From Psammoneis japonica (lineage: Eukaryota), in assembly GCA_008632985.1 (NCBI GenBank), contig QPGO01000040.1, positions 129,719 to 193,718 on the forward strand: DNA of 64,000 bases, in the 5' to 3' direction. Each line of letters opens with the position of its first letter. Within the stretch, counting starts at the first letter, position 1. Below are positions 1,444 through 51,092 of the stretch, piece after piece. The notes under the pieces were generated by a model that worked only from the letters and a program-made list of their open reading frames with translations, did no database searches and was not told the DNA's origin. The position numbers were made by a program, and so were the translations under genes.

Positions 1444-2215
1444 ATGATGCACAGGACTCTAGATTGCACGGCATTGGGAACGTTTCTGCTGGCATGGCTT
1501 TGCACAGGCGCAAACGGACAAGGCGATCCAGTGGTGCTTGAAGATTCTGTCGGGATGAAGAAAGACACAAGTCTCGCTGAAAGCCACCACAATGCTCACA
1601 GAGGGAGGTTTGACATTGGAATGGCTTTGGCAACCAATGATCGCTCATGCGTGAGCGACCTTGCGGATGATGAATCACAAACCTCGTTGACAAAGGATTC
1701 GGCTGCTTTCGACATTGGAGAGTGGGTGCAAATGGGACGAAGCATCTCTGTGGACAAAAGAAAAAGGCACAAAATGGTGGCAATGTCCAGAGATGGCAAA
1801 CGTGTGGTCATTTCAGAGTCTGGGACATTTGAAAAAGGCGGCACTGTCCGTGCATGTCAACGGAACTCTGTGAAGTCGGATTGGAAACAAGTGGGCCAAA
1901 TCATTGCAGGAGACGAGCTCAGTCCGCTAGTGGCCATGTCGGGAAATGGAAAACATTTTGTTGCTGCCGCAGGCAGGGAAACAGTTCGTGTCTTTAAATG
2001 GCTTCAACAAAGGTGGGAGCAGGTTGGAGAAAGCATTCCAATGTGGGTGGGCACTGGCTGCAATAGAAGGTCCTTTGAGGCAGCAGCAATTTCGGATGAT
2101 GATGGTCAAACTGTTGCTGTTTCGCTCCTCGTGTGCCGTAGAGTCCCTGGACAAGTCAAAGCATTTGACTGGGGAGGATCAAGATGGAGCAGCCACCAGC
2201 AGCTTGCCGGCACCT
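1444..2215 (+). pseudogene. Truncated, TA-mutated inverted paralog of the 1-624 propeller gene
   Basis: Colinear with the 624 gene (DIGEWVQMGRSIS, VAMSRDGKR, VAMSGNGK, ETVRVFKW, WEQVG), with RAYQ->RACQ and GKYF->GKHF. Propeller-like sequence ends near 2200 and runs into TA-free DNA. Confidence 0.7.
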
Positions 2216-2817
2216 CTCTAGAGTGGCAGCTCCAGCTCTTTGCCAGAGAGAGTTTTGGCTTTCCTGCCAATTGTTTTCGGTTGTGTCACTGTCCAGCTGT
2301 CAATTGCAGTGCCCAGCATGCACAGTCAGGCCACAGCACTGGTGCAGCAGGGGCACCAATCCTGCTCTGAGCTGCCACTCTGAGCTGTCACTTGCATTCA
2401 TTCCATTTACAACAAAAACTTTGCCAGCTCATGTGCATGCTCAGCTTTTTTGTGCTCCATTCATCCAACCACACTTGCCTCTCTGATGAGTTCTGCAGCA
2501 CAAGAGCAGTTGCTGCTGATCAGCAAAGCCCACGGTCTGGCCCCGGCTGGTGGTGAAGCCATGCTCTGGCACCTTCCACCCTTTGTGGTGGTCTTTTCTC
2601 TTGACACTGCTCAAACATGCAGATGCAGGACCAAGCATTCTCAGTTCTGCGCTGACAGGTGCCCGGTCAAAATTGAGTGCATTTTTTTCTGTCTGCTTCT
2701 TTGACCGGGCAATTTTTTTGACAGCTCAGGAGGCAATGATGGCCACAAAGTCAATTGGCTGGCAGGTGTGACAAGAGCCAGAATCACTTTGAACACTCCA
2801 GATTGCAGCTGTGGAAA

Positions 2818-2935
2818 TGAAGGCTTTGTTCTCCTTGCAGCTGCCCTGTCATCCTCTTGCTGCTCTTTGTTCTTGCATCACTGCACAAAACTGTCCTTTT
2901 CATCTCAACCAACTGCAAAGTTGGCAAAGTGCCAC
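2818..2935 (+). repeat. Mutated copy of 4340-4456 (sequence upstream of the propeller gene at 4652)
   Basis: tgaaggctttgttctcc...catcactgcacaa...catctcaacc...gtgccac aligns with tgaaggcttcgttctcc...cattactgcacga...catctcaacc...gtgttac. Confidence 0.85.
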
Positions 2936-3060
2936 ATTGTCTTTGCTGCAAAGAGCACCTCAATTTTGTTTGTCCAGACAGCTGGGATGAAAAAACATTT
3001 GTCCATTGCAATGACTTTGATTGTGAGGTTCCATTTTTTGAATGAGCAGCAAATCTGTTC

Positions 3061-3900
3061 TTGAGGAAAGAGAAAGAGTTTGGTCAATCACAAAAGAGAA
3101 AAAAACAATCTCACATGTGCTGATCAAGCGACACATGTCAAGATGGAACTCTGGCTCCCATGTCTCATCAAGGGCACAAGACTGTGCAAAAGGAAAAGAG
3201 CAAGCTGCACAAACAGTTTGGACAGAACATTTTCAATGTGATGAAAATGGACAGTGACAATGATGGGCATTGTCTGAAAACATTGTGCGTTTTTCAACAA
3301 ATTCACAATCAAATCATTGAGAGTCAAAGCTGTGGAGAGCTCTTGAATCGGAAGATGATCATGAGCAGGGGGTGCAGCAGGAGAAGTTGGTGCAAGACAT
3401 TGTCTTGGCTGCAAAGGGTGCCATGGTTTTGTTTGCCTGAACAGCTTGGATGAACTTGCTTTTCTCCACCATCAGGCCACAACTTTGATTGCGAGGTTCT
3501 GTTTTTTTAGAGGACCTGGCAAATCTGCTCCCAACCCCAACCCTGACCTGACCCTTGGAAAAGGAAAGAGTTTTGTTTGTCTTGTCAAAAGAGGAAAACA
3601 ATCTCACATGTGCCGGTGACCAAGTGGGGCATTAAACTGGAGCTCCGATTCCTGTGTCTCATCAAGGGTGTGACCGCACAAAAGGAAAAGAGCAAGCCAG
3701 ACACAAACAGTTTGGATTGAACATTTTCAATGTGACAAGAATGGTCAGTGACCAAGATGAGCATCATCAGAAAATGTTGAGTGAGTGTCTTTCAACAAAC
3801 TCACAATCAAATCATTGTTGGAGATCAAAGCTGCCGAGAGGCTCTTTGTCAGAGGATCACGAGCAGGAAGAGAAGCAGGAGGAGTTGGCACAAGATGGTG
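3061..3900 (+). repeat. Diverged direct duplication (~340 bp: 3061-3400 and 3555-3900)
   Basis: Shared blocks acaatctcacatgtgc, gtctcatcaaggg, caaaaggaaaagagcaagc, cacaaacagtttgga, aacattttcaatgtga and tcacaatcaaatcattg. Confidence 0.85.
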
Positions 3901-4651
3901 AGAGGAGGAAAAAACAATGCTTCCCAAATCTGATTTAGATTGAGAGTTGTGTCAGCTGGCTGTTGGTCAGGGGTGTGTGCGATTGTGCTCAGCAGGGCAG
4001 GGGCACACAAAAAATGAACGAGAAAGTGAAGAAACCAGGAGGCAGTTCTCACGAGCACAAAAATCGTGATGCCTTTGTTTTTGAGTGCCAAAGTCACCAA
4101 GGCAAAGTGGGCAAACCTCTGGCTCTACCGGTGGAGGCAAGCTCCAGAAAGCAGGGGAAACAATGAAGTCGCAAGCAGCATTTTGATTTCTTGAAATTTG
4201 TTCGGTTACGTACGTAAATGTGGTTTCACCTTTTTCCCTCTCCCAAATTTCAAAATTTCAAATTTTCGCTAAAAATGCCGTCCGGCCGTCAATCAGTGCG
4301 ACACAAAAAGAAATGTTGGCCTTCGACCATGGCGCTCGCTGAAGGCTTCGTTCTCCCGGCAGCTGCCTCGTCGTCTCGCTGCTCTCTGTCTCTCTCGCAT
4401 TACTGCACGACTGTCCCATTCATCTCAACCAGACTGCGAAGTTGACAGAGTGTTACAAAAGTAAATGCACCTGCATAACGCGCGGAGAGAAAAAATGCGA
4501 TGGCTTATCCGCGTTCATCTTTATTCTTGCTTCAAGTTCAGCGAAACGTTCGATCCGCAACAATCTCAATCGTGTTGCCGCATCAACCTCTCTCTTATCC
4601 AGCAAGCGCAATGACAAAAAGAAGAAGAAGAAGAACAACTCATTGCTGCTT

Positions 4652-7090: not shown

Positions 7091-9140
7091 TCAAATCAGA
7101 TAAAATGGCGAGCTTGCATACACGGGCTCTTGACCATTGGGTGGGAAAATCTTAAATTCAGCAAGATAACAGCCAACTCCACCAAGCCTTGCCATGGGAT
7201 TCCGAACTTCATACATCCATCTGTTCTTCTTGACAAGTCGCATCTTGCCACCCGACAAGCCCGTGTCTTGGGCCTTGGCCTTGTTGCCGACAAACCTTGC
7301 AATGCGCGTCAACTCTGGCTCAAGTCCACCCTCTGCATCCGAGATCACGTTATTGTTGCAGTCCTTGACTCGAATCTTTAAACGTAGTTTCGAGTCTGTA
7401 CTCTTGGCGGCTATTCTCTTCAAATATGGCGGACAAGAAAAGCTGTATCTCGGTGAGGAACGAATCATCACTTGACCCATGGGTCTCGACCTTGTAACCT
7501 GCAACGGACACGAACCACAAGCATCACCGACGCCGTCCCCGTCACTGTCCGCCTGATCAGGGTTGGGAACCGAGGGGCAGTTATCAACATCATCCGGTAC
7601 CCCGTCGCCATCACTATCGGGATCTTCCTTCAACAACTCCAACACAAAAAAGCTCCGAATAAGCTTCCCTTCTTTTCTTATTCCATTGGCTGCCTCAAAG
7701 AACAGCTTTCCATCAATCGGTGTCAATCGTCTTATTTCCGAAGAATTGGGACCACGACGAATGTCCCTTATCATTTCAGTAGAGTTACTCAAGGGGTCGT
7801 GCACCCACAGCTCCCTTCCATGCACTGCATCATCCGCCGTAAAGAACAACATTCCATCCATGGGTGTCAATAGAAATGGATTCGAAGACCCTTCCCTGTA
7901 TCGGGTTTGGATATCTGCTACCATTTCCGTTGTGTTATGCACGGGATCATGCACCCAAAGCTCCCCCCCATGCCTTCCGTCTTCAGCGGCAAAGTATAGC
8001 TTTCCGTCCATTGGTGTCAAATAAGAAGGATTTGATCTCTGGTTACTACCACCGGGACGGATATCTTCTACCAATTTTGTTTCTTGACTAAGTGGATCAT
8101 GCATAAAAAGCTCTGTTCCTCGCTGTTTGTCCTCAGCACTAAAGTATAGCCTTCCATCCATGACTGTCAAACTCCGTGGATTCGAACCACCATAGCCTCC
8201 ACTGGGATGGATGTCCTTCACCATTTCTGTTGTTTGGCTCAACGGATCGTGCATCCAAAGCTCATGTCCATGCTTTTCATCCCTGGCATTGAAATACAAC
8301 TTTCCATCCATGGGTGTCAAGTAACGTGGACGCGAATCCTCACTACCGGGACTGATATCCATTACCACTTCCGTTGTTTGACTCAAAGGATCGTGCACCA
8401 AAAGCTCCTCTCCATACCTTCCATTCCTGGCTGTGAAAAAAAGCTTTCCATCCATGGGTGTCAAGTTTTCGGGATTCCAAAATCTTGCGCCTTTACTTTC
8501 AAGAAGCTTTACCGTTGATTTCTTCACGGGGTCGTGCATCCAAAGTTCACTTGCAGCTTGGAAATACAGCTTTCCATCCATTGGTGTCAAATATCGCGGA
8601 ATCGAAGATCTGCGACCGGGAGAGATATCCATCACCATTTCTGTTGTTTGTTTCAGTGGATCATGCATCCAAAGCTCAGATCCATGCTTTCCATCAGTAG
8701 CCACGAAATAGAGCTTTCCGTCCATGGGTGCGAAATCTGATGGAGCCGACGAATCGGTACTGGCCAGATATCCGTTACCATTTCCAGCGTCTGGCTCGAT
8801 AGATCGTACAGCCAAAGCTCCAGCCCATGCGTTCCGTCATTAGCATCAAAGTACAGTTTTCCATCCATCTCCACCACTTCGCGAACTGGATAAATGGCAT
8901 TGCTAACTAAAGTAATCTTGAAGGATGGTCGTTCTTGCACTAACCGACGGTGTGATTTGTTCTCGTAGTAATAAGTTTGGATTTCCCCGTCGACCTTCTC
9001 ATTTCGCAAAGAACGAGAAGACTTGTTGTTGTTGTTCTCCGTCGACGGAATTCCTCTCCAAGAAGACTTGTTGCAGTTGCTGCATGCTTACAGACACCAC
9101 CGATAAGAAAAAGACATGCCCAATAAGTCAGCCCGATCAT
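7091..9140 (-). CDS. Secreted ELWxxDGT-type repeat propeller protein with thrombospondin type-3 Ca-binding repeat; two apparent -1 frameshifts (~9055, ~8760)
   Basis: Signal peptide [15 protein letters not shown], about eight GxELWxHDP..TEMVxDIxPG..[13 protein letters not shown] repeats, and [34 protein letters not shown]. Three ORFs join if one G is added at each of two G runs. Confidence 0.8.
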
Positions 9141-9439: not shown

Positions 9440-11985
9440 AGCGATTGCAACTCCCAACTGGGAGGTCTGTAAGTGGTGCAGAAGAGAGAAATTAAGGGAA
9501 GACGATTGCAGTTGTCCATTCCAATTCTTTACTCTTGCATCCATTTATCACCCATTGTGTGGCCATCCACTGTCCACCATCCATTGTCTGTGGTCATCCT
9601 CCGCAACTCACAACCCCACATGTCACCGTCCATTGCCCCCGCCCCCGCCTTCAGCCACACACAGTCCATCATCAACTGTCCATTTCAAGCTTCAACAGCC
9701 TGAACATGTGAATGGAGTTTCTCATTTGCATTGAGCAAGATCGACTTGAGAAATTCCAACAGCACCGCCATGCCCCTCTCCTTCACAACCTTCGTGAACT
9801 CCGCTGCGTCTTGCTCCAACCTTGTGATGGACTGCCTTTGTGCACTTTCTAACAATTTTGTTAAAGACCTTTTCCTTCTGCATCTTGTGGTTTGTCTCAT
9901 CCTGTTCTGATCACAATGTTTCCCTCAGATTGCCTTGTCCTTCTCTGGCACGGTTGTGCCGATGATCATGGACACTCCAGCTCCTCCTGTTTGTGTTTTC
10001 CTGCTGCCTCAGAGGCATCAGCACCTGCACTTCTGGCCCAAACACTCTTCCAACACACTTGCTTGTTTTCCTCATGGTTTCCATGTTCTCATTGGCTTGT
10101 CAACCCAACTGGGAAATTGTGTCATTTTCACCCACTCCTTCAAATCTTTTGTGCTTCCACACCAAGTTGTGCCCTCCTTGCCCAAGTCAATGTCTCTCCC
10201 GGTCTGTCACAACTTCACCACCACACCCTTTTCAGCAGGCACCCTTGCAGCTTCCTCTCAGCAAAGCCCTCAAGAGACTGTTTTTTTGCCAGCCGCTCTT
10301 TCACCGGGGAGCAACAACTTCTCTTCCAGTCAATCCTTCAACTGGAGCAACAAAATCTGCAACAATTCTTGTCAGCTCAGCAAGCTTGAATGCCACAATT
10401 GCTCACACCAACCGATTCTTGGGTTCCTCTCCTCCTGAATCCCCAGCCTTCTCTTGGGTTCTTGTGACATCCCAGCCTTTTGCTTTTTAGCCTCTGCACC
10501 AGAACAGCTCAACAACATGGCAGCAGCATTGGCAACAGTGTTCCAAGAGATGCGTCATTGTGGTCCAAACATGTGGTGAGTTTTGGAGTTGGCAAGACTG
10601 ATGCAGTTTGGTCAGCAAGCTGCAAAGCTCCAACACAGGCTAAAAAGTGAGCACAAAACCACGTTCATGGAGAGCTTGTGAGTGCAAGTTCGCAACGTTG
10701 CCAACAGCAGTGACCAATGCTCTTTCACTGCAACATTGACTGTCTTCTCTCTGTCTTCCCAACAAAGATGCCTTGAACCTTGGCATTGCAACACCCAGGC
10801 TTTGTGTTCCAACAACTCTCATGTCTTTGCGTGTGTTTGTTTGCAGAGTTTTTGGCAATTGCAGTGTGGACCGCTTGATGACTTTTTGCTTGCATGCTTT
10901 GTCATTGTTTTGCAGCCCTTGGAGGACACCACAAGTCTGCTTTCTCCTCTCACAAGCTCTTCAGATGACTTGGTGGTGTCTTGATGTTGTTGTTGCATCT
11001 GCACTTGCTTGTGTTTTGATCATTTGTATTTTCATCTTCAGCCTTGCTCTTGTTGAAAAAAGATTTCTTCTGCTGCTGGCACAGCAAGAACAACACACAC
11101 ACACACACACACACACATTGTCATCACAAAAAAGCGTGCTGGGAGCTTGAGCTTGGCAATTGACCCCCTTGAAACTGAGCCCCCCCCCTTGATTGAGCAG
11201 CCCACCAAAAGGTGACTCTGCCTTCAATGAAAGGACAATTGATGAAAAGCACAAGCAAAACCAAAGTTGAGGTGCACCTGTTTCTGCCCCCCACAAAGTT
11301 TCTTGGCACACTCTCTTTTTTGAGAAGGAGACCCAGCACCCTGTTTTTGCACAGCACCAGCACAGCTGACCACATGTGTGTGAGCCATTTGATGCATTCA
11401 ATGTGTCATCTGAGAAAAACATGAGTTTCCTTTCATCCTCCAAGATCAACCTTTGATGATTTCCAACTTGGCTGCTTGTTTGGGCAAAAATCTTTTGGAG
11501 AGAAGCACAAGAGCTGCTGTTTCATCTGCGAAGCAACACAAAGAGGCCCTGCTGCTGGTGTGGAGCGGGGGAAGTCTCTCATCTCGGGGGGAAAACACAC
11601 ACATGTCAAGCCAGGAACTGGCAGGGCACACCAGTGTGAGTGGATGGGCAGCTGGAGGAAGGAGAGGATGCCATGAGGGAGAGTTGGCCAGAAAATCTCT
11701 CTGCAGCAAGAGCCAGTTTGGGGCACTGTCTCGACACACACAGCAAGAACAGCAGCAGCTCACACAAAATCTGCTGCAATGGTGTGGGGTGGTCCATTTG
11801 CCCATGTTTTGCCATGCTGGAAAACATCACCTAAATGACAAGAGATTGTAGAAAAAAAAAAGCCCCAAGAGCATTGCTTTTGTGTCATGTTGTGTGACCA
11901 CCTCACACACAACCACTGTCCAACCAAACATCCATCAAGAACCCACACACCCCACAGGAAGTGTGAGAAAGACAAACAGACACTT
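9440..11985. other. TpA/CpG-depleted degenerate block, probable repeat or TE remnant
   Basis: About ten TA in 2.5 kb by eye. No recognisable protein. Contains a (CA)n run at ~11093-11116. Confidence 0.7.
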
Positions 11986-12148
11986 TGCGTTGCCGCCGGC
12001 TGCGGCCGCGGCGGTGTTGGGTGTTGGAGTTGGATCACAATGACAAAGATAGATTTCACTTGTCGTGCACCTGATAGTTACTATCCGTTGCTTTGCTCTG
12101 AGAAGAACAACAAAAAAATGCCATTGACTAGGCGATAAAAACAAGTCC

Positions 12149-16805: not shown

Positions 16806-17021
16806 AAGAGAGAAAGAAGCATTGTGTTTTGAGTGAATCAAAACTATATGCGATCGTACGTCAATACTCTAGAGAGTAGTTTTCAAGAAACCACGGTTCT
16901 GTGTCTTTAGTGTTTTGTAGGTAAGGTAGTACCAGTAGATAGATAGATTGCAGAAAGCGACGAGGTCCTTCTTTACGGCTGTCTTCTCTATTGTACCGTA
17001 GCAGAACGTGCTGTTTCTCAG

Positions 17022-17518
17022 TCCATTCATTATAATGAATTGGACTGATGGTGAGAGTGTTTGCACTGCAAAGATTTAACTACTTTTATATACTTCAATC
17101 AGTGTGAACGCAAGTCGCTCCAAACCATGCCATGCCGATTAGGAACATCTAAGTATAGTCAAGCTCTGGCTCTCTTGCTTAAGAGTGCGTAGGATAGAGG
17201 AGAGGATGAATGCCGAAATGGAGTTTGTAGGGTTCGAGAGCGAGAGTTAGACAAACCAAAGGATTGAGCTGTTTCTTACTGCTACCTACCACTCACTCCA
17301 TTTATTGTAAAATGAATTGGACGGATTGGGAGAATATTGACACTGTAAAGAGTAAACTAGTTTTATATTTGAGTATGAATGCAAATCGCCCAAAGTCATG
17401 CCATGACGATTAGGAACAACTAAGCACAGTCAAGATCAGGCTCTCTAGCTAAGGCTGAATGCCGAGATGAAGATTTATTTAGAGTTCGAGAGAGATTGTT
17501 TGACAAACAAGGATTGTC
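17022..17518 (+). repeat. Diverged tandem duplication (~17022-17250 and ~17297-17518)
   Basis: Shared aatgaattggac, catgccatg.cgattaggaaca.ctaag, ggctctct, tgaatgccga, gttcgagag and gacaaac..aaggattg. Confidence 0.85.
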
Positions 17519-32697: not shown

Positions 32698-32749
32698 GTG
32701 TGCGTGTCTCTCTCTCTTTCTCCATTTCTTCTCCATTTCTTCTCTCTCT

Positions 32750-38000: not shown

Positions 38001-38252
38001 TCAGAAACTCTTTATGACCACGCCGTTGACGATTTCTTCTTTCGTTATACATGCCATTAACGTTCTGAACAGAGTAGAGAGGGCGTGAACATTACGAGCA
38101 ATGTAAGTGGGCACCGTGGTCGTAGAGTCAGACCACAACGAGTACAGAGATTTCTAGCAACTCACTTTTTTGTCCTCTGCACCAATCACAAATCCCCATT
38201 GCGATGATGCGGTTGTAAATGCAACCACTGCCAGCGAGAACAGCAATCTCAT
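35044..38252 (-). CDS. Secreted M11 (gametolysin-like) metzincin protease A with two C-terminal repeat modules; multi-exon
   Basis: Signal MRLLFSLAVVAF, SQYKACSGGKL, HEIGHMLGNK-HSG across a splice, Met-turn DGTCMMG, CFNGAKSY.LGWY. Confidence 0.85.
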
Positions 38253-38654
38253 GGTGATTCGGTCTAGGAAGTGATTATTGATGACTAGTTCTCTTGATGC
38301 TGTAATTGTTTGCAGCCATCAGCAAGCGAAGGAGTTGTAATGACCCCCGTCAAACACATTTGCCCCTCAGGCCTGAGGGCTAAATGTTGAGCGACAAAAT
38401 GTATCAAAATGTCTTCTCATGAGGCATTTCTGGTAGAAATAAGGGGGCATAGAACGTCAATGCCTTTTTGAAACAAGTAGGGACTGTAGAGTAGAGAACT
38501 GACAAATGACTGCAGCTTCGCTGATATGCCCCATTTCAACGGGACTAGAGAGAGAGTATCGTACAGTACCGTACCGTAGGAACGAAAAGTCGAAAAGTCA
38601 CATCAGTGACCGAGTCGCCTTTTAGTCTAAGTAGTCAATCAATCCGTCCCCGTC

Positions 38655-38770
38655 CTGCTCTATCTCTCTACTCTCTCTATTCTCTAGTAGAGAAAGAGAG
38701 AGAGAGAGAGAGAGGGCCCTACTCTCTACTTTAAGTAGAGAGAGAGAGGGCCCTATTCTAGCTAGTATAA
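38655..38770. repeat. CT/AG palindromic microsatellite-like tract
   Basis: ctctctattctctagtagagaaagagag(ag)n and gggccctactctctactttaagtagagagagagagggccc. Confidence 0.75.
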
Positions 38771-38990
38771 TTCTGTACGTTGCTAGCCATTAGAAAGTAC
38801 GCGCGCCAACGATGGATGGGGTCGAGAATTCTTTGTGGGGTACCAGCCATAGCTAGCTAACTATTCATAGTCATTCCCACGGGTCTTTTGTATCCCGATC
38901 GCCACATTCACATTTTGGACTATCCATATCTGGAACCAACAGGATGACATGGCACTTGCTACGTGAAATAAGATTATGTTAACAACAATT

Positions 38991-41900
38991 TTAGATTCTA
39001 TATCGCACAAAGAGTCGAGGGGGGCGCGAACTATCAGGGTCGTCGAAAGTTCGAACTCTTCTTCCAGATTCAGTTCCATCATTCATCAGTATTATCTTCA
39101 TTGCATTCCCATATGCGTAATCAGGAAGATCAACAAGCTCTTGTATTATTGGAGAAATGTCACCCACGCTGTTGTATTCATTCACTTGCCAAGTTGGAAG
39201 ATTTTCAATCCTCACAACAGCATTGGTTTTCCCCACATCTCGCAATTGAAAGGTTTCGTATTGAAAAGGAGGAGAATTTCCCGTTTTTTCTCCTTGAATT
39301 GTACCTACGACATTTCTGTCCAAGGAAGTACTACTCTTGCCTTCAAGTTCAAGGCGGGCTTCCAGAATCGTCGCGCCCTGAGGAATGGGTACGTTCACAA
39401 ATCTATAGGCTTGTCTCTCATGAGTGTCCGCAAACAGAACATGTGTTCTTCCTCCAGTTCCGATTGAGCCCCCTGTGTTTTCCTTGTAGTCGTCTTTGGA
39501 ATCAGTAACGAACACTTCAATCTCTTGTGGTGGAGCTGGCAGATTATCCGTACCTGGTATGTACGATACGATGATTCTAGTGTTGAAGCCACTTTCTGTG
39601 GTGAGAATCTTGCGAACACCGCCATTGTTGTCCCCGACAAGGAAGATTTCGATAGGATTCCCTTCGTTGTAATCATTACGATTTACGATCTCTTGTATAA
39701 TAGGCGAAACATCGACCAGTTCTTCGTCCTCTAGTCTGTGCCAAGGAGGTAAGTTTGGATCAATTGTTACTTTCGCCGCGGTTTTTGCAGCATTGGTAAT
39801 ATAGTGAGCATCTCCCGTGTATGTCTGAGGATCTCCAGTGGCGTGCCCAACTGCATAACCGGACAACTGGCTGTCAAAGAACCGGTCATCATCAAAGGGA
39901 CGGACATAGATCTTTGCCGAAAGAATTTGAGCGCCACGAGGAATAAGACCAATTCCAGCTGGTTCAAACCAGTAGCCATGCAAGTACCAGTTAGATCCGA
40001 ACATGTTGTGTACTGCTTGAGAGTTTTTCATGGCACCATTTTCTTTCTCTCGGTAGTCGCCGGCTTCTGATTTGATTTCCAGCCCTGCTTTTTTAGATCC
40101 TATAGAAGATTCGGGTGTGAGTTGCATGTCTTTGACTTCGAGCGCGGTTGAGATACAAATTCCTACCTTGAACGTGCCCTGGACAAAAGAGCCTATTGGC
40201 CTCGTCATCAAGATAAACCATTGTACGGGCGAAATCAGGAGGTCCTAGAACTCTCTCGCATACCTCGACCACAAGGTCAACGCCATTATGAAAATTGGGG
40301 TATCTGAACGGAAGGGTTTTCTCGGAGATTCCCGCGAGCAACCAACTTTGATCACTTGGACCATCCTGCTCAACTATCGTCACAAGGTTTTCTTTGTCTT
40401 GAACTTGTGAGTTGATTCCTTTCTTGCGATTGAACATGACGTACAGGTCGTTGGAAGTTTGGGAGACAATCCTGAGAATCACAGCTTGATTGGGAGAGGT
40501 TTGACCATTAACATAGTCGTCAATCCCGACGATCTTCCCTTCCGCGGACGATATAGTAGGATCAAGGGCAACTGCTCGGTCAGCGTACCAGCCAAAGTTC
40601 CAAGATTTCGCAGCGTTGAAGCACATCCGCGGAGCATCATCTTCGTAAAGATGAGATCCCATCATGCAAGTTCGGTCATCATAGAAATAGTCTCCTTTTC
40701 CCGAGTGCCTATTGAAAAGTTAAGTAATGCGAAAGAGCACAGACGATGTGTTAGGATTCAAACTATAGGAAAGCATGGCAAAAGATTGCATAACGAATGC
40801 TTACCGATTGCCCATGTTGTGCCCTATGAGTGCAATGAAAACAAAAAGTTCTGTTAGAAGGCCACCGATACAAACGTGGAGCAAGATAGGCAGCAACTCT
40901 GACGTACCAACTTCGTGCATGAGTACAAGTAAATTAGAGCTGTACTGATCATTGTAAACCGAGTGATGAGCACCAACGTAGGTATAAGCCGCAGCACCTT
41001 GGAAGTCCACCGTGCCGGGAAAAATGTACATGACAAGGCCCCACTGATCAAGTGGTCCCACCACGGTGGGTGCGAATTCTGTAACCTTGTTTTCTGCGAC
41101 GGTGCTTGGTAGCTGAGCAAGAGACTCAGGAAGTTGGATCTCAACTACACCACGATCGATATTAGGTCCCGAGCCTGGAACGAAGTCAAGCTTACCACCA
41201 GAACAAGCAAGATACTGGGAACGCTGTTTCCGAGCGAACGACGAAAGACATTAGAATGGAAAACCGACAGAGCTACTGTTCTAAATACCTAAACTTACCA
41301 GATTGTGCGGATCGTCGTGGTACCCAAAGATATCACCCCTTAGATCAAAAGCCGTCCTAGTCGGAGCAGTTCCGTTCACATCAGTGACTCGTATCACCAA
41401 AATGGTGTGATTTCCTTCCGTAGCCACAGAGGTTCTGCGGTGACGAAAGGCAGCGGCGGATTCTGTTCTGGTACGGAGCTTGATGCCAGCACCTTTAGGA
41501 ATGTAAACGTCTTGTGGGGTATTCACACCGCCGGCCCTATCAGTTGGATAAGTGATGGTAAGAAGCGTCTTGCCACTTTCAATGTGTCGCTTAAGCTTTG
41601 GAAAGAAGTCATTAGGCAGACCGTGTAAGCTTTTAATTGCGTGATCTTCGTCCAAGAATTCACAGCGCCATTCTCCTCGCTCTCTTTCTTCTTCAGGTTG
41701 GTGATCTTCTTTGAATAAGTAAATCGCTTCCACCAGAATGCACGAAATGGATTTCACGTCGTCGTCAATGCTTCCTTCTTCGCGGTCTTCCTTCTCGTGA
41801 GAAAGCTGATGAATAGTTATCTCCTCAAACTTCTGAAAGAGAAAGTAAACAGAGAGGACATAAGAAAAACTCTTTTACAAGGTCATTTACGATCAACGTC

Positions 41901-42045
41901 TGCCGCCTGTATGAGACAAATCGATCAATACACCTGACTCTCGCGTCTTTTCCCTACTCACTCCGTCAGCAAGTTCAGCAGTGGTAGCTTCGATGTCCCA
42001 CGGTGAAAAAAGAGCTGCTATTGTAATCAAAAGGAAGAAGTTCAT
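38991..42045 (-). CDS. Secreted M11 protease B with two C-terminal modules; multi-exon (includes intron 40100-40166)
   Basis: Signal MNFFLLITIAALF, HEV|GHNMGN|RHSG, DRTCMMGSH, CFNAAKSWNFGWY. Confidence 0.85.
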
Positions 42046-42572
42046 GGTTGCACACTGGTTAATGCGGCAACGCACTCGATGCTTGGTGCTTGGTGCAATG
42101 AGAGGATTTATTTGTTGCGCTCGCTCGAAAACGTGACAAGAGAGGCACACACCGGGCATAAACATCAAAGTGTTTCGTCTGAAATGTCGTTTCTGGAGTC
42201 ATAAATTTAGATATTGTGATTAGTACTTGGCTAGGTAGAAACGACAAAGATTTACATGATCGTCAACAATTACAATGACTCTTCAAAAACCGTGTTTGCA
42301 TGACCTGTAATGACTTCTCCTCGTACCCAAGTTTAGATGGACGGACTGACTCGAACCAACCCCGCTCGATGACTATGACCCCTCGCTTGATCCATGTCGG
42401 AAGTAGGGGACTTCCGACTCAAGATGACCCAGTCTAGTCTTCCGACTGTGACCGGTCAAACTTCGGTCTTCGCTTCTCTCACTTTTCCAGCTTTGTTGGA
42501 ACAGGAACCCTGATCAACGTGACTGGATCACACAAGCTCGGAAAAGCATTGTTCTTTTTAGTCTCTCTCATC

Positions 42573-45040
42573 ATGTCGGATTTCTTCATCTCGGGTGTCT
42601 CGGATGATGCGTTCGTTGATTTGGCTCATCAGCTGGAGTCTGATGTTGTCTCACCACTCTCGTCGAGCTCTCCGGTGGCTCCCTCTCCTCAGGCTCGCCC
42701 TTCTGGGGCTGCACGACAGGGGGGGTCACGGGGGCTTAAATCCCCAAGGCGCAAGTGAGGACATTTTGGGGGGTTGCAGTCATCCCCAATCGGACATTGA
42801 CAGGGCGGAGTCACCCAGGGGAAGTCATTTCCCACCCTCCAGGAACTCACGTTTTGGAAGGAGACGCATCCAGCCCGTTTCAGAGGGAAGCTCGCTTGAC
42901 TCGGGTGGGTTTCTTTGGGCGGGATTCAGTGGGTGATGTCGGGGGCATGCTCGAGGTGGAGGAGGAAGGCACGTCTTCTTCGTCCTCGCATGTGTCTCGT
43001 TGTCGAATCACCTGGCTGGAGACAACTGGAGCACCTCGGTGCTTGGGGGTCAAGGGCGGAGGAGCCACCTTCTGCCTCAAGAAGGCAAGCGAGTGCAATG
43101 TGAAGAACAAGGGCGGAAGGACAAACATCCCGGCAGTGGGGATGACAGCGATTCTCAAGTCCCCGGATGCGGGGTTTTGTCAACCCACCCCAGACGGAGG
43201 GAGCATGTCTGGCGAGGTGTCAGTTAAGTGGGAATCGGAGTCAGGTGCCCTGGCTGGGTGGCGGCAAAAGTTTTTGTTTCTGGGCAACGGTGAGCCCTTT
43301 TTTACCAAGGACGAGGTGGAACCTGCTCCAAAGGAGTGTGAAAAGGCGGCCGATTTCAAGACACCGGCTCGCAAGCAGTGGCCAGAAACCACCTTGCCTC
43401 ACGAAGATGCCGTCCTGGAGAGATTCATCCCGCATGAAAAACAAATGCTCTCCACACCGGCACAATTCCTGGTGGCAAACAAGAGTCCATCCGCTTTGGC
43501 TCGGGTGGTGCAATCAACCGAGGATGGATTGAGGCAAGCCGGGGAGGCACCAGCCGAACCAGGTGACAAAGCTGGGAAGTGTTTCCATGCTGCGGAGTCC
43601 ATGGTTGACGTTCTCAGCTGAAAACTGGATCAACTCAACGCGTCTCTCGGCACTCCGACCCAGGGATTTGACGAGGCTCTCCTTGCCCCCATGCTTTGGG
43701 GCACCCTGGCGAACGTTGCATCTCAGGAAACAGGAACCCAATCCACGGACCTGCTGGACCACATCACACAAGTGGAAACGGGGTGGAGAAACCAATCCAA
43801 CAATCTCGTGAGAATGTTCAACGAGAGGTTTCAAGGGATGCAAGATTGGATGGGATCCACGGCCAGTTGCATGGATCTGGAAAACCTGAAAAGAAACATG
43901 CTTTGGGTTTGCACCCAGTTGACCTCAAAGGTCAGGTCGTTAGAGTCTCAGGGAGCTGTGGGGTTCGCACCACCAGGTGTGCCATGTGACCAAGGTTCCG
44001 TGGATGCACGCCTCACTCGACTGGATCGGGCGGCAAGAGTGAGCCACGCACAAAATCGGACAAATCAGCTGTCAAGTTCTTGGGGTTGGTGCATCGTCCT
44101 GCAAGGAGTGCCAGGCTTGGATGACACAACATTTCCCTTCGAGGGCGCATGGATGTTTAACCGACATTGTCTTGCTCTTGGATCGGATCAAAGGAATTGA
44201 GCCAATGGCCCTGCATCACTTTTTATCTCAGTGGGCCAAGCGTGTGAGCATGAACATTGCGACCAAGGAAGATGCGCGAACTTTGGCAGGCTTCCAATGC
44301 CGCATGCCTCGGATTTTTGACTCGGGATCTGCAAAGTCGGCTCAGACCTTGGGGTTGTGCATCCCTCCCACTTGGACAGGGTCGAGACTTACGAACATTG
44401 GTCGTCTGGGAACGTGGGGACGAAGCACTTCATTGAGGGGAAGATCGCCTCGATGGAAAATGATGTCATGGAGGACATCAACCAATGCATTAGACCGGGC
44501 ATGTTTGAGAGCCAGGCAGTGTGGGATGCTTTGTCTAAATTGGTGGCTTTCCTGCTGGCACTGACTCAGTTTGTCGACTCAACTTGTGCTTCCCTCGCTG
44601 ATCTGAGCAAGTTCTTGAAGAAGCAAGCATGGTCCTTGACCTCCAAATTGATGCATCGCATCTTTGAGGACATTCACAAGGCGCGTTCGGGGGCATTTGC
44701 CTCCATTTCAGGCACGGACCCAGACGCAGTGTGCAGCAAAATTTTGTGGGCGGTGTTTCGAACCCAGGATGTTGTGGCCGAGTGCACGTCCATGGGGTTC
44801 GCCGATCACCCCTCGATGGCATTGGAATGTGTCAAGTTTCTCGTGACTTGTTCCGCTTTCAAAGTGGTTGCGGACTTGCAATCCATGGTTCTGACGTTGA
44901 CGGAGAAAGCCAAAAACGCTGGCTCTGAGGCAAAATCAGCCCAGGCTCATGGGGATGCGGCTCACGTGGAACTGGGAAAATTGCGGACGGAGGTGAAGGA
45001 CTTGACTCGCCGTCTGAAAGCTCTTGAGAACAAGAAGTGA
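42573..45040 (+). pseudogene. Retroelement ORF1 (gag-like), fragmented
   Basis: Cys-containing N-terminal region, then KKQAWSLT..RIFEDI..ARSG..ILWAVFRTQDV..FADHPS..ECVKFL and a C-terminal coiled coil. Confidence 0.55.
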
Positions 45041-45049
45041 AGCTCGTGG

Positions 45050-48000
45050 GGAATGGAGAAACTGCGGGAGGGTCCGGTCTCGATTGACAGGCCCACCAAC
45101 CCAAGGCATGTCATGCAGGGCCGCAAAGCCTTCTCATTTCAAGGAGCTTGTTTGGTTCTTGCTTCCGGTCCCCCAATTTGGCTTTCATCTTGTGCCACTG
45201 TTCTGACATCACTTGCACTTCCCACTGGAGTCCCCTGTCAGTGGAGATGTTCCAAAGCCAGTTGGGTGCCTCCTTGGCATGGGTCTCTTGGTCTGGTGTG
45301 GGACACCTCGCTGCCCAGGTTAATCTTGTGTTTGTGTCGGGCCCACCCTCATTCCTCGAATCTGCTGTGCATGTCATCTGCTCTGCACCCTTGATTGTGA
45401 TCCCCGTGGGAAAAATTTCGAGACGCAGCCTCCTTGGACTGCGCCAGTTCCAGCGTCGGGATGTTGCACATGCAGTGGCAGGTGGCGTTGCTTCCTTCCG
45501 CACAACACTGTTCTGGGGCAAGGGGTGCCCGCTCCGGTCTTTGACGGAGGCCTGCTGTCGGTCCATCATCGGGCATGTCATTGATTGCAAGCTTCCCGGG
45601 CCGCCATCGCCCCAACACCCCCATGATGATTTTTGCACGGAGGCTGACCATCTTGATCCTCAGTTCTTGAACCGACCGGTCGTGTGCCCATCTCATTGGT
45701 CTGTGACAGGTTGGGTCTCCCGCGCTCTCTCTGTGGATGAAACATTGGCAGCCTGGGATTTCCTTTTGCATTTCTGCATGCCTCAGGTGCACCGGGCCTT
45801 CGAGCGGGGTTTTTCGCTTGTCCCGTTGAACCTCCTCACCCTGTTTGTGGAAGCGTTCATTGACAATGCCCCCCAGGACTCGTCGCAGCCTGGGCATGTG
45901 GTTGGCGGGGACACTGTGCCTGAAGTTCCGGTTCATGGGGCTGGAACTTGGCCACCTGCCCTTCGGCGGCATTTGCCACACACTTGGATCAACATGTCCC
46001 TCACAACTGCGAAGGCCGCTGAGGGCGATGCAGCGGCGCCTTCATTTCGTTTGTGGGACAAGCTGATTGCTCTGCTTTTCCCGGTCTTTGGAAAGGTTTT
46101 ACCTGCCCTTCGGGACTTGACCCATTGATGGTGGTGGAGGCGGACTCTTCGGTCCTTTCTGTCACACCTGCACTGGGTGCATGGCCCGACATGGGGCGCC
46201 ATGTTGGCCACACAACGTCGGCGTTTTGGGGATGCTACAGGGCGTCTTCAGGGGGGGGGTTGTCGCCACCCTCCACTCCCATCTTTGCCACTTGACGCAC
46301 ACCTTGGGGCAGACGTGTTGACACAAGTGTTGGCCAGCACATGGCAGAACTGGGGCCGAGGTTTGTCCCTTCTATTTTGGTGATGGCCCACTCCAGAGCA
46401 GCGGGTTTGCGCTCGGGATGGGATCCAGATTTTTGTTGACGGTCCCCTCCCTCGCAATCGTCGCCGCCAGCGAATACGGTGTTCAGAACATGAGATCCTC
46501 AGGATGGCGGACAAGACACAGAAAGTCCGAGACCAAGGATGCATCTGTCATGGCAGGGTGATCAGCTTAACAGACTATTTCTGGGTCCCAAAGACCGTCC
46601 GAGTGGAGCCCCAGAATGGACGGTTGGTGGAAATCGTCGAGGATGTGTGGATGGTTTACAATGGGACTTCTTCCAGATTAAATGATGCCTTGTGGGCACC
46701 CTCCTTTTTCTTGCCCACCCGTTTCGGTTCTGGGCTGCATGACCCATTCTACGTTCTCGGTGGACCTTGATCTTGGCAATGTGTTCTTGAATTTTTTCAT
46801 GGATCCCAACATCCGGCCCTGTGCGGGATTGACTTAACCCCGCTCAAGCCGTGTCTCCCGTCGCCGGAGCCGATCTCGGGGGGTCCACTCTGGTTCGAAC
46901 GATGGAACCGCTTGTTTGTGGGGATGCATCCCAGCCCTTGCTTGGCGGTTTGGGCATTCCATTGGGCCGATGAGATTGCCCGAGGCGATCCACAATGATC
47001 TTTGACATTGTGGGGTGTGACAAGCTTGTCCTAAACTTGCCGAGTGACCCAAATTTCCAGATGGAAAACCCATTTGTCATGAAGTGCAATTCACGTTGGA
47101 AGGAAATTGCTGGGGACATCAAAACATTTGCAGACGACTTGCGAGGAATGGGGGCGAGCGAGGAATCCGCATGGCAAGTGGCTCACCAAATGGCCTCACG
47201 GTTGCAGCATCTTGGTCTGCAGAAAGCGGCCCGGAAGGCACGCCCCCCTTCTCAAGTTGAACCAGAGCTTGGGCAGGCGCCATCTTCAGAGTTATTGACA
47301 GGGACGTCACTCAGTCTGTGGCTCAGGCTAAATGGGATAAAGCCAAGGTCATCATTGCCGATTTGCTTGGTTTCCATGCAAATTGGCCTGATGGCTTTCT
47401 CCCCAGTTTTGACTTCAAGGATCTAGAGCGGAAACAGGGTTTTCTGGCACACCTTGCGATGACTCACTCTTTCCCAACACCATTCTTGAAAGGCATCCAC
47501 TTGACCCTTGACTCATGGTGGCCAAATCGAAAAGAGGACGGTTGGGCGATGACAGGAAAGGAGTTCGTGAATTGGATTCATTGTCTCGCTGAGAAGCGGG
47601 GCCTAGACCCATCAGAGGTTGCAGAGGGGCTAAGGGATCAGCCGCCACCTCTGCAGGTCACAGCAGTCCCTCATCTGTTCATGGACTTGACAGCTGTGTC
47701 CCGCATTGTGGAGTCTCCTGCCCCCACTGTGGTGATCATCAGGTTGTCAAAAATCGTCTCAGTCCTCTACGGTTTTGGTGATGCATCCGGAAAAGGGCTC
47801 GGCACGTCCCTGGAAGCATCGGACGGAACAATTGTCTTTCGGATCAGTGTGTGGGGCGATGACGAACTGGGAAACTCTTCGAATTGGAAGGAATTGTCCA
47901 ATGCGGTCGATGCCATCCAGGAACTTGGAGAGGAGGGCAAATTGACTGGCATGTGCTTGTTCTTTTTTACAGACAACTCGGTTGCTGAATTGGCTTGGCA

Positions 48001-48679
48001 CAAGGGCACCTCTTCCAGCCCCCTCCTGCTTGAGCAAGTCATTCGGTTAAAATCTTTAGAGGCCAAGCATGGGATTGGGCTGTGTCTCACACACGTCTCG
48101 GGAGGTCGGATGACAGCTCAGGGTACGGACGGAGTCTCTAGGGGAGTCTTGTCTGAAGGGGTTATGAACGGAGCCAAGATGTCATCATTCGTGCCCCTTC
48201 ATCTTGGAGCCACTGCTCGGTCTCCCACTCTTTTTGCGTGGGTTCAATCTTGGGCTGGTGCCCCGCCTCCGGAGCTGCTGACCCCCTTGGAGTGGTGTCA
48301 GAAGGGACATGACATTGCGGGGGGGAGTTGCCCAGACCACGAGGCAATCGAAATGCCCCAGTTCAAGTCAGGCACTTGGGTTTGGGCCCCGCCTCCAGCT
48401 GCGGCAAGGGCGGCTCTGGAAGAGCTCCACATCACTGGGATCAAACGCCAGACATCATTTCACACATTCATCTGCCCACGCTTGATGACGCCGGAGTGGC
48501 AGAAGCAGTTGTACAAGGCGGCAGATCTTGTGTTCACCATTCCGGCTGGAGCAAGACCTTTCTGGCCAGGTGACATGTTTGAGCCATTGCCAATCGGCCT
48601 TCTTTTTCCGTTCATTTCCTGCAGCCCTTGGCAGCTTCGGGGAACCACAAAAATGCATGCTGTGGACCGGTCCTTGTGA
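45050..48679 (+). pseudogene. Retroelement RT + RNase H (DIRS-like), fragmented
   Basis: FWVPK..MVYNGTSSRLNDALWAP.F, TFADDLR (YxDD-like), LQHLGLQKAARK, YGFGDASG, SSNWKEL, FTDN, HVSG.RM.AQGTDGVSRG, WAPPPAAA. Confidence 0.8.
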
Positions 48680-50191
48680 CGAGTGTGGCCGGACACTGCG
48701 GTGGACGAAAGGCACATTCTGCACAAATTTTGTGCACAATGCAGGAATCTGGCCGGCATGTCGGAGAAAGCATTGTGTCCAGGGTGCCACACTTTGAGAG
48801 AAAGCATGACATTCCATCTGGGAGGGACCCTGTCGGACGACCCTCAAAACAACGATGCTCAAACTCTCGGGGCTGACCGCCCTTGGTTGGACAATGATGT
48901 GTGGTGTCGGAAGCCACAGGACAAAAACAAATTCATGCGGGCTCACGCAGGAGACCATCTTGTGGTGGCGTTTGCTGAGTGCGACTCCTGTGTCTTTCAC
49001 AAGCTGCACCAGAGGGAACCCGTGCCATCATCACCTAGAGACAAGGTTGCCCCAGCTTGCATCCGACGGGTGATCCTGGATGCCTTTTGGAGCAGGGAAT
49101 CTACAATGGTTGAGGCGAGTGCGGCAAGAGTTGGCCGGGGCCTAACCTCATCCAAGCGTTTGGGCCTGATGGGCCCTCACCTGGAACCAGGTCTGCTCCC
49201 GCCCATGATCACTGTGGGTGCGAGGTCACGATGCAGATCGTCTTGGCATCGACGGCTGCAGGGAAACACTCGCAGTCGTGCACTCAGTTTGATGCGATGG
49301 GAAATTGCGCACTGCGCGCTCCAATCAGGTGCGTGCTTCTGCCCAGGCTAATTCATGTGCTTCAGCGTTGGGCGACTTGGAAGGAAAACAGCATCTCAGA
49401 TGTGTGAGGACCACGTGCCTCGCTGTGGTTCCAACATTTTATGACCGGGTGCAAGAGATGGATGGGCCAAGACTGGAGGCCCGACAGGGCAATGTCAGTG
49501 GACGTCATGCAACACCTCTTGCCTCGGGTCGAAGAGAAGGCTCTTTGAGCCCCAGGAGAGGCAGACAGATTCATGTGCCTTCCTGCAGATTGCACTTTGC
49601 GGCGAGCTACGTCTTGTCCCTGCGGGGCCCAGAAGGTTTGCTCATGGACTTGGGTGCAATGGCAAAGCATCCACCAAGACACACTGAGCATGTTGCAGTC
49701 CCCCTTTTGGGGCGAGTGAAGGGAGAACATGGGGAGTGGCAGCACCTCCTCCCAAGTGTCAATGTGACCAGCTCAGGGACCAACCTTCAATTTTGGGTGG
49801 AGACAGCAGTTTCGTTACACTGGGTCATCGGCGAACGCGCGGACCAGCCATGTCGGATGTGGACGGTCAAGTCTTGTCTACGAAAAAGCTTGGCACTTTC
49901 CTGCATGAAGTTCTGGGAGACATCTGTGATGATCACCCAAGCTTGTTTGCAGCAGACATCACCTCTCTTGCTGACACACAGGACAAATGTGATGTGAGCC
50001 GGTCATTCAGGAGGGGATCTGACTCTTGTGCCATTGCTCAAAAGGTGTCGGAAGATGACATTGATGTCGTCAACCATTGGAAAAAGAAGGAGAGGTTGGG
50101 GGCGGCTCGACCCACCCACAAAATGTGGCAACACCATGCCGACATCACCCTTCTTTTGCCCTCTTTCCTGCATTGCACCAAGGCCATGTGA
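48640..50191 (+). pseudogene. Retroelement tyrosine recombinase, fragmented
   Basis: IRRVILDAFWSRE, LSLRGPEGL, PLLGRVKGE, SRSFRRGS, and IDVVNHW..MWQHHA, where the probable catalytic Tyr reads His. Confidence 0.7.
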
Positions 50192-51092
50192 CTCGGGATG
50201 ATCGCAAGCCCTTGGTGACATCAGCCCCCCGGAGAGCAGCCCTCTATCTTCCTGCTCTCTGGATCGCCATTTTTGGTGGCCACTGCCCAGGATTCTCATC
50301 GGGGGGGGGGGGGGGGGGGGGCAGAGCTCGACCCATCTCAGCCAGCCTCGGGAGTCAATGAGACAAGGTCAAAGACAACTGAGTGGCACAAGACGTTCGA
50401 CGGCTTCAGTTTTCGTGCAGGAAAACTTGGTCTGGCGCATCTTCGTTCGAGGTGGCCATTTGCTCTCTAGTCTGCACCCAACGTCGCGAAATGCCAAAGG
50501 GGACAACACTGGAGTTTGGTCCTCGAAAATGCCCGAGGTGCCAGCACTGCATCGGTTTTTCGGAAGAGCCCCTGTTCTGCTGCAGGACCCTGCGGAGGGT
50601 TTGGATTTTCCCGTCCCCCTTGTGCGGAGCAGAGCTCATGCCGAAAGCTTTACTCCACGAGTCTCCCAAGTGTCCTGATGAATTGTTACTTCTTAGTGGT
50701 TCTTGACTAGGATCATCCGAGAGCTAGTCCGAAGCGGCGGTTCGCAGAGTCTATACTCGGATCCTTCCTGCTGTTATAAATAAATAAAGCACCAGTCATT
50801 CTGAGATACAATTTTGGTCATTTTTTGGCCAGTTCCTTCATCGTCGAATCGAAAGAGACGGAGAGCGCACGACCACAGACTTCCCACAGACAGGCGAGCA
50901 ACAATTGGTTCCTTGCTTCGTTCTCGGTACAGTAGTCTACGTAGTAGACAATGTTGCTCAAAACGTTTTCATTTCTAGCTACCTTTCGCACGCTGTACCT
51001 AGAAATCTAGTTGACTAAGAGCTAGAGCGGTCTACAGGAGAGCAAGGTCAATTCAAAGTTAAAATTCATTCCCGTTAGATTTTCTTACTCAT

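Follow-up and report, generated by a model that had tools for sequence, protein, structure and literature searches.

The window analysed here is a stretch of 64,000 nucleotides from the diatom Psammoneis japonica (assembly GCA_008632985.1, contig QPGO01000040.1, positions 129,719 to 193,718 of the forward strand), and all coordinates below count from its first letter. Five blocks of this window have lost nearly all of their TA dinucleotides. The window was viewed in bins of 500 bp, after which the exact limits of the blocks were set; expected numbers of TA were computed from the TA frequency outside the blocks (0.0455). The blocks, and the normal gene copy used as a reference for the first of them, are the following.

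1–640, minus strand: reference gene copy with normal TA and one intron at about 246–321
1461–4126: block 1; 9 TA observed, 121 expected
1461–2100, plus strand: block 1a; TA depleted, CpG normal; lies inside the open reading frame (ORF) 1402–2367
2101–4126, no strand assigned: block 1b; TA and CpG both depleted; contains a tandem duplicate and a copy of 4340–4457
9547–12050: block 2; 7 TA observed, 114 expected; CpG observed/expected ratio (o/e) 0.23
26083–27841: block 3, 1759 bp; 0 TA observed, 80 expected; CpG o/e 0.24
32146–34778: block 4; 2 TA observed, 120 expected; CpG o/e 0.32
42560–50651, plus strand: block 5; 45 TA observed, 368 expected; GC content 55%

Extent and composition of the TA-depleted blocks

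Together, the five blocks contain 63 TA where about 800 would be expected. The TA o/e is 0–0.11, and the deficit has a binomial P of 3e-36 to 4e-104 in the individual blocks. The longest run free of TA is 159 bp outside the blocks, compared with up to 1759 bp inside. The edges are sharp, the TA density being back to normal within about 100–150 bp. These counts agree with an earlier sequence-only reading, made by a model from the letters, which had described five nearly TA-free blocks separated by DNA of normal TA content. Its coordinates are accurate to about 100 bp, with one exception: the start of block 1 lies at 1461 and not at 2225. The loss is confined to discrete, apparently non-genic domains.

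TA was replaced one for one by TG and CA. The o/e of these two dinucleotides is 1.3–2.0 in the blocks compared with 1.14–1.19 outside, and the mean of both is 1.6–1.9 in blocks 1–4 and 1.39 in block 5. With the rest of the window as reference, the gain of TG plus CA in blocks 1–4 balances the loss of TA, and the G+C content of the TA-depleted blocks is raised. The sum of all pyrimidine–purine steps (TA, CG, TG and CA) is 0.224–0.245 in the blocks and 0.239 outside. As this sum is constant, the composition has been shifted by transitions only.

A parallel depletion of CpG, which is absent from the sequence-only reading, was found in block 1 from about position 2100 onward and in blocks 2–4 (o/e 0.23–0.32, corresponding to a loss of about 70% of CpG). 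In the first 0.6 kb of block 1 the CpG counts are normal. Block 5 and block 1a have thus lost TA without net loss of CpG, which demonstrates that TA decay and CpG decay are separable. The process acting on TA is either faster than the decay of methyl-cytosine or independent of it. The occurrence of both losses in the same four blocks fits a domain that is defined by silent, cytosine-methylated chromatin.

Because DNA free of TA can hold neither TAA nor TAG, long open frames occur in all six frames of every block, and these false ORFs are a trap for gene callers. No Pfam family reached the curated cut-off in any block among 24 long ORFs of the window, nor among all 82 ORFs of at least 70 amino acids from blocks 1–4. 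Blocks 2–4 have no recognisable content according to Pfam and to a comparison with the family of the block 5 element (see below), and the same two comparisons gave no match for block 1b. The blocks had been taken as mostly remnants of transposable elements in the sequence-only reading; this applies to block 5, whereas blocks 2–4 are anonymous by the comparisons just given. A self-comparison of the window in purine/pyrimidine code revealed, beyond pairs already known, no repeat between blocks above the null score of 50.

Direction of change in duplicated sequences and in the block 5 retroelement

The ORF at 1402–2367 (plus strand) is an intron-less paralogue, in head-to-head orientation, of the gene at 1–640 (minus strand). 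It lacks the intron of about 75 bp of its neighbour, yet forms one open frame of 322 codons. The normal copy contains 19 TA; in the block copy, 10 of these places read CA or TG and two still read TA, compared with a retention of 41–67% for other dinucleotides. Where the normal copy reads RAYQ and GKYF (1–245, minus strand), the block copy reads RACQ and GKHF.

In block 1b, segment 2818–2936 is a copy of 4340–4457, the 5' region of the next gene, and a tandem duplicate is formed by 2934–3399 and 3397–3897. The two units of the duplicate differ by 86 transitions and 29 transversions. Fifteen of their 46 adjacent double differences are swaps between CA and TG, compared with 39 of 1064 in controls (P 5e-10). 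The controls were three ordinary paralogue pairs, which were pooled; the pair 17017/17292 (no swap among three double differences) was left out of the pool, and so was the pair 7647/7791, which aligned to itself. Such a swap is expected where one ancestral TA (or CG) has been resolved twice, independently and in opposite ways.

A second version of block 4 is provided by contigs of the read set X1. These contigs cover each place once, at a word depth equal to that of the flanks (about 55-fold), and extend into the neighbouring genes. No second copy of block 4 that is at least 80% alike was found among the X1 contigs. Window and X1 differ at no fewer than 18 positions in the 2633 bp of block 4 but at only four in 8706 bp of its flanks, a ratio of rates of 15 (P 1e-8); the count within 32496–32910 is a lower bound, taken from the best-supported rows of the comparison. 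The 18 positions comprise six single exchanges between CpG and TpG or CpA, four swaps between CA and TG, one other transition and one three-base change, and none of them restores or involves TA. From the rate of single CpG hits, about 0.09 discordant CpG double hits would be expected, compared with the four swaps seen. This suggests a process that saturates sites once occupied by TA and that was ongoing after the two versions of block 4 had separated. In the tandem duplicate as well as in block 4, the swaps mean that the same ancestral dinucleotide was hit independently and in place.

The two versions of block 4 also bear on a technical explanation, according to which a base modification in silent chromatin leads to systematic miscalls of TA (and CG) as TG or CA. 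Domains of this kind are likely to carry modified bases, and X1 may stem from the same sample. Against an artefact, the X1 contigs reproduce the TA-free block 4 with differences none of which brings back TA, the tandem duplicate and the paralogue pair have, besides losing TA, diverged in the ordinary way, and block 5 has frameshifts and other decay. Further, a corresponding signature was called from Illumina reads of mutation accumulation lines in the alga Bigelowiella natans, according to a preprint (Mettrop et al., bioRxiv 10.64898/2026.01.13.699255). We therefore consider an artefact very improbable. Persistence of the pattern in raw reads had been proposed as a check in the sequence-only reading; it holds for block 4 in the X1 contigs, with the restriction that X1 may derive from the sample used for the assembly.

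Block 5 is a degenerate copy of an uncatalogued retroelement, and its parts are these.

42560–50651, plus strand: full-length, frameshifted copy of a three-ORF retroelement (gag-like, reverse transcriptase/RNase H, probable tyrosine recombinase)
46384–47423, plus strand: reverse transcriptase core, split over at least four reading frames; fragments match 32–76 of 80 related loci; Tyr replaced by His in LQHLG
47261–48676, plus strand: C-terminal part of the reverse transcriptase and RNase H domain, an open frame of 472 codons
48680–50188, plus strand: remnant of the third ORF (probable DIRS-type tyrosine recombinase) in several frames; matches 56–72 of 80 loci

The 472-codon frame has 602 homologues at E ≤ 1e-3, with 40–55% identity among the 120 matches listed. 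They include proteins of Fragilaria crotonensis and Cylindrotheca, and many are from contigs of 2–9 kb. Our set of relatives consists of 80 related loci from environmental metagenomes, two of which have three intact ORFs of about 780, 1328 and 530–580 codons. Block 5 is colinear with this family from 42740 to 50188, in several shifted frames. The family consensus has FVDD and QYLG motifs. An AlphaFold model of the 472-codon frame (mean predicted local distance difference test, pLDDT, 87.8) was matched by Foldseek to the reverse transcriptase of cauliflower mosaic virus (E 2.4e-6) and to RNase H1 chains (template modelling score by target 0.6–0.69). In the ESM Atlas, a relative sits among clusters with RVT_1 on 87–99% of their members. 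The third ORF of relative L004 lies near clusters in which 18% and 29% of the members carry Phage_integrase and 78% carry ALOG, which is a lead only. The element is probably of the tyrosine-recombinase (DIRS) kind.

No Pfam family was found at the curated cut-off in 44 of the 71 block 5 ORFs of at least 70 amino acids or in six intact ORFs from relatives, and a search of PDB sequences with the ORFs of two relatives gave no match. Terminal repeats of at least 25 nt, inverted or split direct, were not found in 42000–51500; they may have been erased by the hypermutation. The protein search revealed no copy of the element with more than 60% identity, and a scan of viral contigs revealed no relative. 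In X1, 896 contig pieces at least 80% alike pile up on block 5, with a summed word depth of 280–1560 compared with about 55 in the flanks. This sum is not a copy number, but the piled-up pieces indicate that diverged sister copies exist.

A relative of the element is encoded by 318 of 593 matched metagenome stretches. These three-ORF retroelements of about 8–9 kb seem to form a DIRS-like family of diatoms that is so far uncatalogued.

The family allows the direction of change in block 5 to be followed. All 80 related loci have a TA o/e of 0.38–0.84, so the family is not intrinsically TA-poor, with the caveat that the search for relatives favours well-conserved copies. The dinucleotide frequencies compare as follows.

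Block 5, sense strand: TA 0.0056, CG 0.0471, TG 0.0899, CA 0.0812, sum 0.2237
75 related loci of at least 3 kb, mean: TA 0.0447, CG 0.0445, TG 0.0755, CA 0.0601, sum 0.2247

Relative to the family, the decrease of TA by 0.039 is balanced by an increase of TG plus CA by 0.036, and CpG is not net-depleted.

The same direction is seen at the codon level, for which 548 columns conserved among the 80 loci were used; this test replaced weaker ones based on 120 proteins with one and then ten Tyr columns. Tyr is kept in block 5 at only two of 16 family-conserved columns (Cys at five, His at four, Phe at five), compared with 413 of 532 for other residues (Fisher P 1e-7). Of the 133 changed columns, 19 are compatible with a change of TA to TG or CA, 22 with CG to TG or CA, 13 with other transitions and 36 with transversions; 43 require at least two steps. 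A T precedes the changed codon in all three replacements of Met by Val and in two of the four of Ile by Val, which places a TA across two codons. The LQHLG, ECVKFL and LHCTKAM sequences of block 5 lie on family Tyr columns, with Tyr in 55 of about 76, 14 of 23 and 15 of 28 loci, respectively (Phe in the other 13 of the last). Together with the block 1a copy, this supports the replacements of Tyr by Cys or His that had been noticed in the sequence-only reading.

For 18 of about 2200 places in block 5 at which X1 contigs and window differ, the single changes were as follows. At nine the window has TG or CA and the other contigs CG, and at three (42927, 48183 and 49926) the window has TG or CA and the other contigs TA. 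The window has TA against CA at 43303 and CG against CA at 45443, and four places show other changes.

Context of the surviving sites and the candidate agent

Surviving TA dinucleotides are found in a YTAR context (Y, pyrimidine; R, purine) in 37 of 68 cases, compared with 375 of 2115 outside the blocks (P 3e-11). After strand symmetrisation, TAA and TAG are left at 7–8% of their outside frequency in blocks 1–4 and at 17–22% in block 5, whereas TAC and TAT are left at 1–2% and 5–8%, surviving three to seven times worse. Read as adenine chemistry, this context would mean that the A in 5'-T-A-Y is hit faster than that in 5'-T-A-R, and that a site resists only where both strands read TAR. In block 5, the survivors have a pyrimidine at position −1 of the sense strand in 41 of 45 cases (family expectation 0.54, P 1e-7) and a purine at +1 in 23 of 45, which is not significant. 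ATA and GTA survive there at 2–3%, compared with 19–23% for CTA and TTA. This pattern suggests that the adenine of the antisense strand was hit first in block 5. The trinucleotide gains on the product side and the base composition of block 5 lie within the scatter of the family and are too noisy to settle a strand bias.

Dinucleotides other than TA bear on two of the agents put forward in the sequence-only reading. Error-prone repair synthesis of the Pol eta type in heterochromatin would convert WA to WG (W, A or T), and WA comprises TA and AA. However, AA/TT is not depleted (o/e 1.22–1.27 in the blocks, 1.11–1.13 outside), which excludes the WA signature of Pol eta. AG/CT is not enriched, and the near-complete conversion is unlike repair patches. 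We give this explanation hardly any credence. Decay of modified adenine at the usual eukaryotic site, ApT, is likewise not indicated, the o/e of AT being 0.98 in block 5, 0.77 in blocks 1–4 and 0.92 outside.

Editing before integration has to be weighed as well. Adenines of retroelement RNA or cDNA could be deaminated in the course of retrotransposition, by an adenine counterpart of APOBEC3 or by an ADAR-like enzyme acting on double-stranded RNA, so that copies arrive free of TA. Block 5 is a retroelement, its TA-free stretch is also the stretch of raised contig depth, and its context is strand-biased. Block 1a is retrocopy-like in having no intron of the parent gene, and the edges of the blocks are sharp. 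However, the swaps between window and X1 in block 4, a locus that single contigs connect to the genes on its flanks, require hits after insertion, and both strands were hit. In addition, the surviving sites are TAR, while ADAR prefers 5'-UAG (PMC10661471), and in B. natans the signature arises in resident single-copy DNA (Mettrop et al.). We regard pre-integration editing as unlikely. ADAR resembles the present process in its liking for U before the edited A, and both ADAR and APOBEC3 produce enzyme-driven, context-specific transitions that cripple retroelements. They differ from it in that APOBEC3 changes C and ADAR acts on RNA and prefers G after A; here TAG and TAA survive, and at least some hits probably occurred in resident DNA. 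With respect to ADAR, the preference for a 5' T agrees but that for a 3' G does not (TAG/TAA at 0.07–0.08 and TAC/TAT at 0.01–0.02 in blocks 1–4).

The target might also be thymine. TA is self-complementary, and a change of T to C before A is indistinguishable by sequence from a change of A to G after T; the context can equally be read as R-T-A being sensitive and Y-T-A resistant. In this case, TET/JBP-type oxidation of T at TpA in silent chromatin would yield 5-hydroxymethyl- or 5-formyl-uracil, which mispairs with G and leads from T to C. Hydroxymethyluracil of dinoflagellate DNA occurs preferentially at TpA and TpC. No result obtained here supports such a modification in diatoms, and the B. 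natans authors favour adenine deamination, likewise without a test in the accessible text (Mettrop et al.). We consider thymine an improbable target.

In our opinion, the domains have probably been hypermutated in place at TpA, and the agent may be an adenine deaminase directed to silent chromatin. A change of A:T to G:C at TpA on either strand, within silent DNA, is well supported; it gives TG or CA depending on the strand hit, runs near to completion and ends at the edge of the domain. Affected here are a retroelement, probably of the tyrosine-recombinase type, a duplicated gene without introns and three non-genic stretches of anonymous DNA. Where cytosine is methylated, older blocks would also lose CpG to the products TG and CA. 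A DNA adenine deaminase is our best guess for the agent. It would prefer 5'-T-A-Y-3' and be directed to silent chromatin, and would probably be a TadA/ADAT2-like enzyme, the natural tRNA target of which is also an A after U (in bacteria, before C).

To our knowledge, TadA/ADAT2 is the only family that deaminates adenine in polynucleotides and is able to act on DNA. Position 33 of tRNA is a conserved U. The natural site of TadA is 5'-ACG at tRNA position 34, and evolved TadA is used in adenine base editors, as described in PMC10661471. With A34 following U33 and preceding C, a DNA deaminase derived from TadA/ADAT2 would fit T-A-Y. Wild-type TadA of Escherichia coli does not mutate DNA, according to PMC10354150.

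Several points weigh against the preferred interpretation of an in-place adenine deamination. The direction of change in blocks 2–4 is inferred from composition alone. The CA/TG swaps could stem from CG as well as from TA, and the tandem duplicate of block 1b, if it belonged to a mobile element, could have acquired its mutations before integrating. The read sets X1, X2 and X3 are from one sample, which may be the assembly's own, and their library type is not on record; the X1 contigs are thus not fully independent proof against an artefact at the read level. The totals of differences between X1 and window, about 2240 places, are symmetric and free of context (A>G 392, T>C 430, C>T 404, G>A 355, transversions 69–101 each), so that they show an excess of transitions but no direction. 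The one-sided context in block 5 needs an added strand bias to fit the T-A-Y rule. Finally, the DNA-active amphioxus enzyme BjADAT2 prefers GAA for A, and TCG for C (PMC10354150).

The CpG loss in blocks 1–4, taken together, depends on the neighbouring base. TCG/CGA and ACG/CGT are at about 25% of their outside frequency, and CCG/CGG and GCG/CGC at 42–49%. This effect is reminiscent of the TCG preference of amphioxus ADAT2, but could also reflect a preference of methylation. The stronger depletion of WCG compared with SCG (S, C or G) in blocks 1–4, together with the BjADAT2 preference, prompted the idea of one dual A/C deaminase for both losses, which was set aside in view of the unchanged net CpG of blocks 5 and 1a.

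Relation to known systems and significance

TpA-specific hypermutation of A:T to G:C has one prior report, a 2026 preprint on a single rhizarian alga, B. natans (Mettrop et al., bioRxiv 10.64898/2026.01.13.699255). In two viral inserts of the mutation accumulation lines, 230 of 231 mutations were A>G or T>C, the GC-biased ones all being on TpA, and the mutation rate exceeded that elsewhere in the genome about 1000-fold. The main target there occurs as a single copy, and an ADAT2 homologue was proposed as agent. The genome contains 124 TpA-poor, CpA+TpG-rich clusters, defined by consecutive 1-kb windows with a TpA rho of ≤0.43 and a CpA+TpG rho of ≥1.52.

The blocks of P. japonica correspond to this in the change of A:T to G:C only at TpA, giving TpG or CpA by strand, and in the bounded TpA-poor, CpA+TpG-rich domains with reverse transcriptase sequences among the targets. 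A single-copy target is possible in both, and the density of single-nucleotide polymorphisms is raised inside the domain. By TA o/e the blocks fall within the cluster definition of that preprint; its CpA+TpG cut-off is reached by blocks 1–4 but not by block 5, because the G+C content of block 5 has risen.

There are also differences from what the accessible text of the preprint describes. B. natans is a chlorarachniophyte (Rhizaria), while our host is a diatom (a stramenopile), and the mutations there are live, while here there is only a historical footprint. Instead of giant-virus and virophage inserts, the targets are a retroelement, probably of the tyrosine-recombinase type, a duplicate of a host gene and anonymous DNA. 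The TA o/e of 0–0.11 compares with 0.45 in the nucleocytoplasmic large DNA virus region of B. natans. Four blocks here show CpG decay, whereas the terms ‘CpG’, ‘diatom’ and ‘trinucleotide’ do not occur in that text; it also gives no wider sequence context, in contrast to the YTAR bias of the survivors. The process is not new in kind, as its signature matches that of B. natans; new is the host lineage for something reported once. In the literature searched, no report of a TpA hypermutation signature in diatoms was found.

Repeat-induced point mutation (RIP) of fungi changes C to T mainly at CpA and creates TpA; it needs duplicated sequence and hits both copies. Like RIP, the process is a transition hypermutation that disables mobile DNA and leaves skewed dinucleotides in bounded blocks. 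Its direction is opposite, since TpA falls and G+C rises. This is in accordance with the sequence-only reading, in which the change was given as A to G at TpA on either strand, and RIP and 5-methylcytosine deamination were both rejected as causes of the TA loss. The further description of the process as repeat-targeted and RIP-like could not be upheld. The gene copy at 1–640 is untouched and keeps its TA while its partner at 1461–2030 is depleted, with the caveat that the two share only 74% likeness, and no partner of block 4 at least 80% alike was found among the X1 contigs. With one member of the pair untouched and block 4 partnerless, the targeting is not RIP-like.

Diatoms methylate transposons through DNMT5 (PMC9998398). 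Decay of 5-methylcytosine explains the change of CpG to TpG and CpA in blocks 1b–4 and probably marks the same silent domains. Unlike the process at TpA, it cannot remove TA, and in blocks 5 and 1a TA was lost with no net loss of CpG.

Other features of the window were recorded as well. The complete ORF at 15687–16805 encodes a UAA-family transporter whose best matches with a name come from diatoms (Seminavis, Nitzschia, Epithemia, Coscinodiscus and others; 72–81% identity), which marks the window as nuclear DNA of a diatom and not of Bigelowiella. The regions 35044–41757 and 51093–63998 (minus strand) contain at least six diverged paralogous genes, with 53–57% DNA identity in aligned pairs, and some of these paralogues have a gametolysin-type M11 peptidase and PKD domains. 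Contigs of read set X2 skip segments of 67–192 bp within genes (35035–38064 and 39009–41223), as spliced transcripts would. X2 is listed as ‘DNA?’ and, if it is RNA, would define small introns in those genes. The X2 contigs do not cover blocks 4 and 5 and are uninformative on expression. Internal repeats with a period of about 145–150 bp occur at 7592–8915 (ORF 7091–8815, minus strand), in a gene with a match to thrombospondin type 3 repeats. Two tandem repeat copies of about 250 bp with 70% identity are located at 17017–17516, in A+T-rich intergenic DNA with normal to high TA.

Diatoms represent a second major lineage of the SAR group (stramenopiles, alveolates and Rhizaria), and a saturated footprint in one of them speaks for a defence that is old, or has evolved more than once, and against a peculiarity of a single strain. 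What the diatom case contributes is that the process at TA is separable from CpG decay and yet shares its domains, and that the targets include a retroelement and a duplicated host gene and are not limited to viral inserts. From the survivors a wider motif emerges, with YTAR being resistant, which narrows the search for the enzyme and argues against ADAR-like and Pol eta-like agents. Very tentatively, diatoms and chlorarachniophytes might share an old, chromatin-guided defence, in which a 5'-T-A-Y DNA deaminase derived from TadA/ADAT2 rewrites silenced mobile or foreign DNA alongside cytosine methylation; we think it doubtful, but worth stating. If true, eukaryotes would have, in addition to RIP in fungi and the APOBECs of animals, a second independent system of the ‘mutate-the-invader’ type, and one that is genetically dissectable in diatoms. 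For diatoms, CRISPR tools as well as methylome and chromatin maps exist, so that enzyme and targeting are directly testable. A natural TA-specific DNA adenine deaminase would also be of interest for base-editing work. The process may be widespread and open to study in diatoms.

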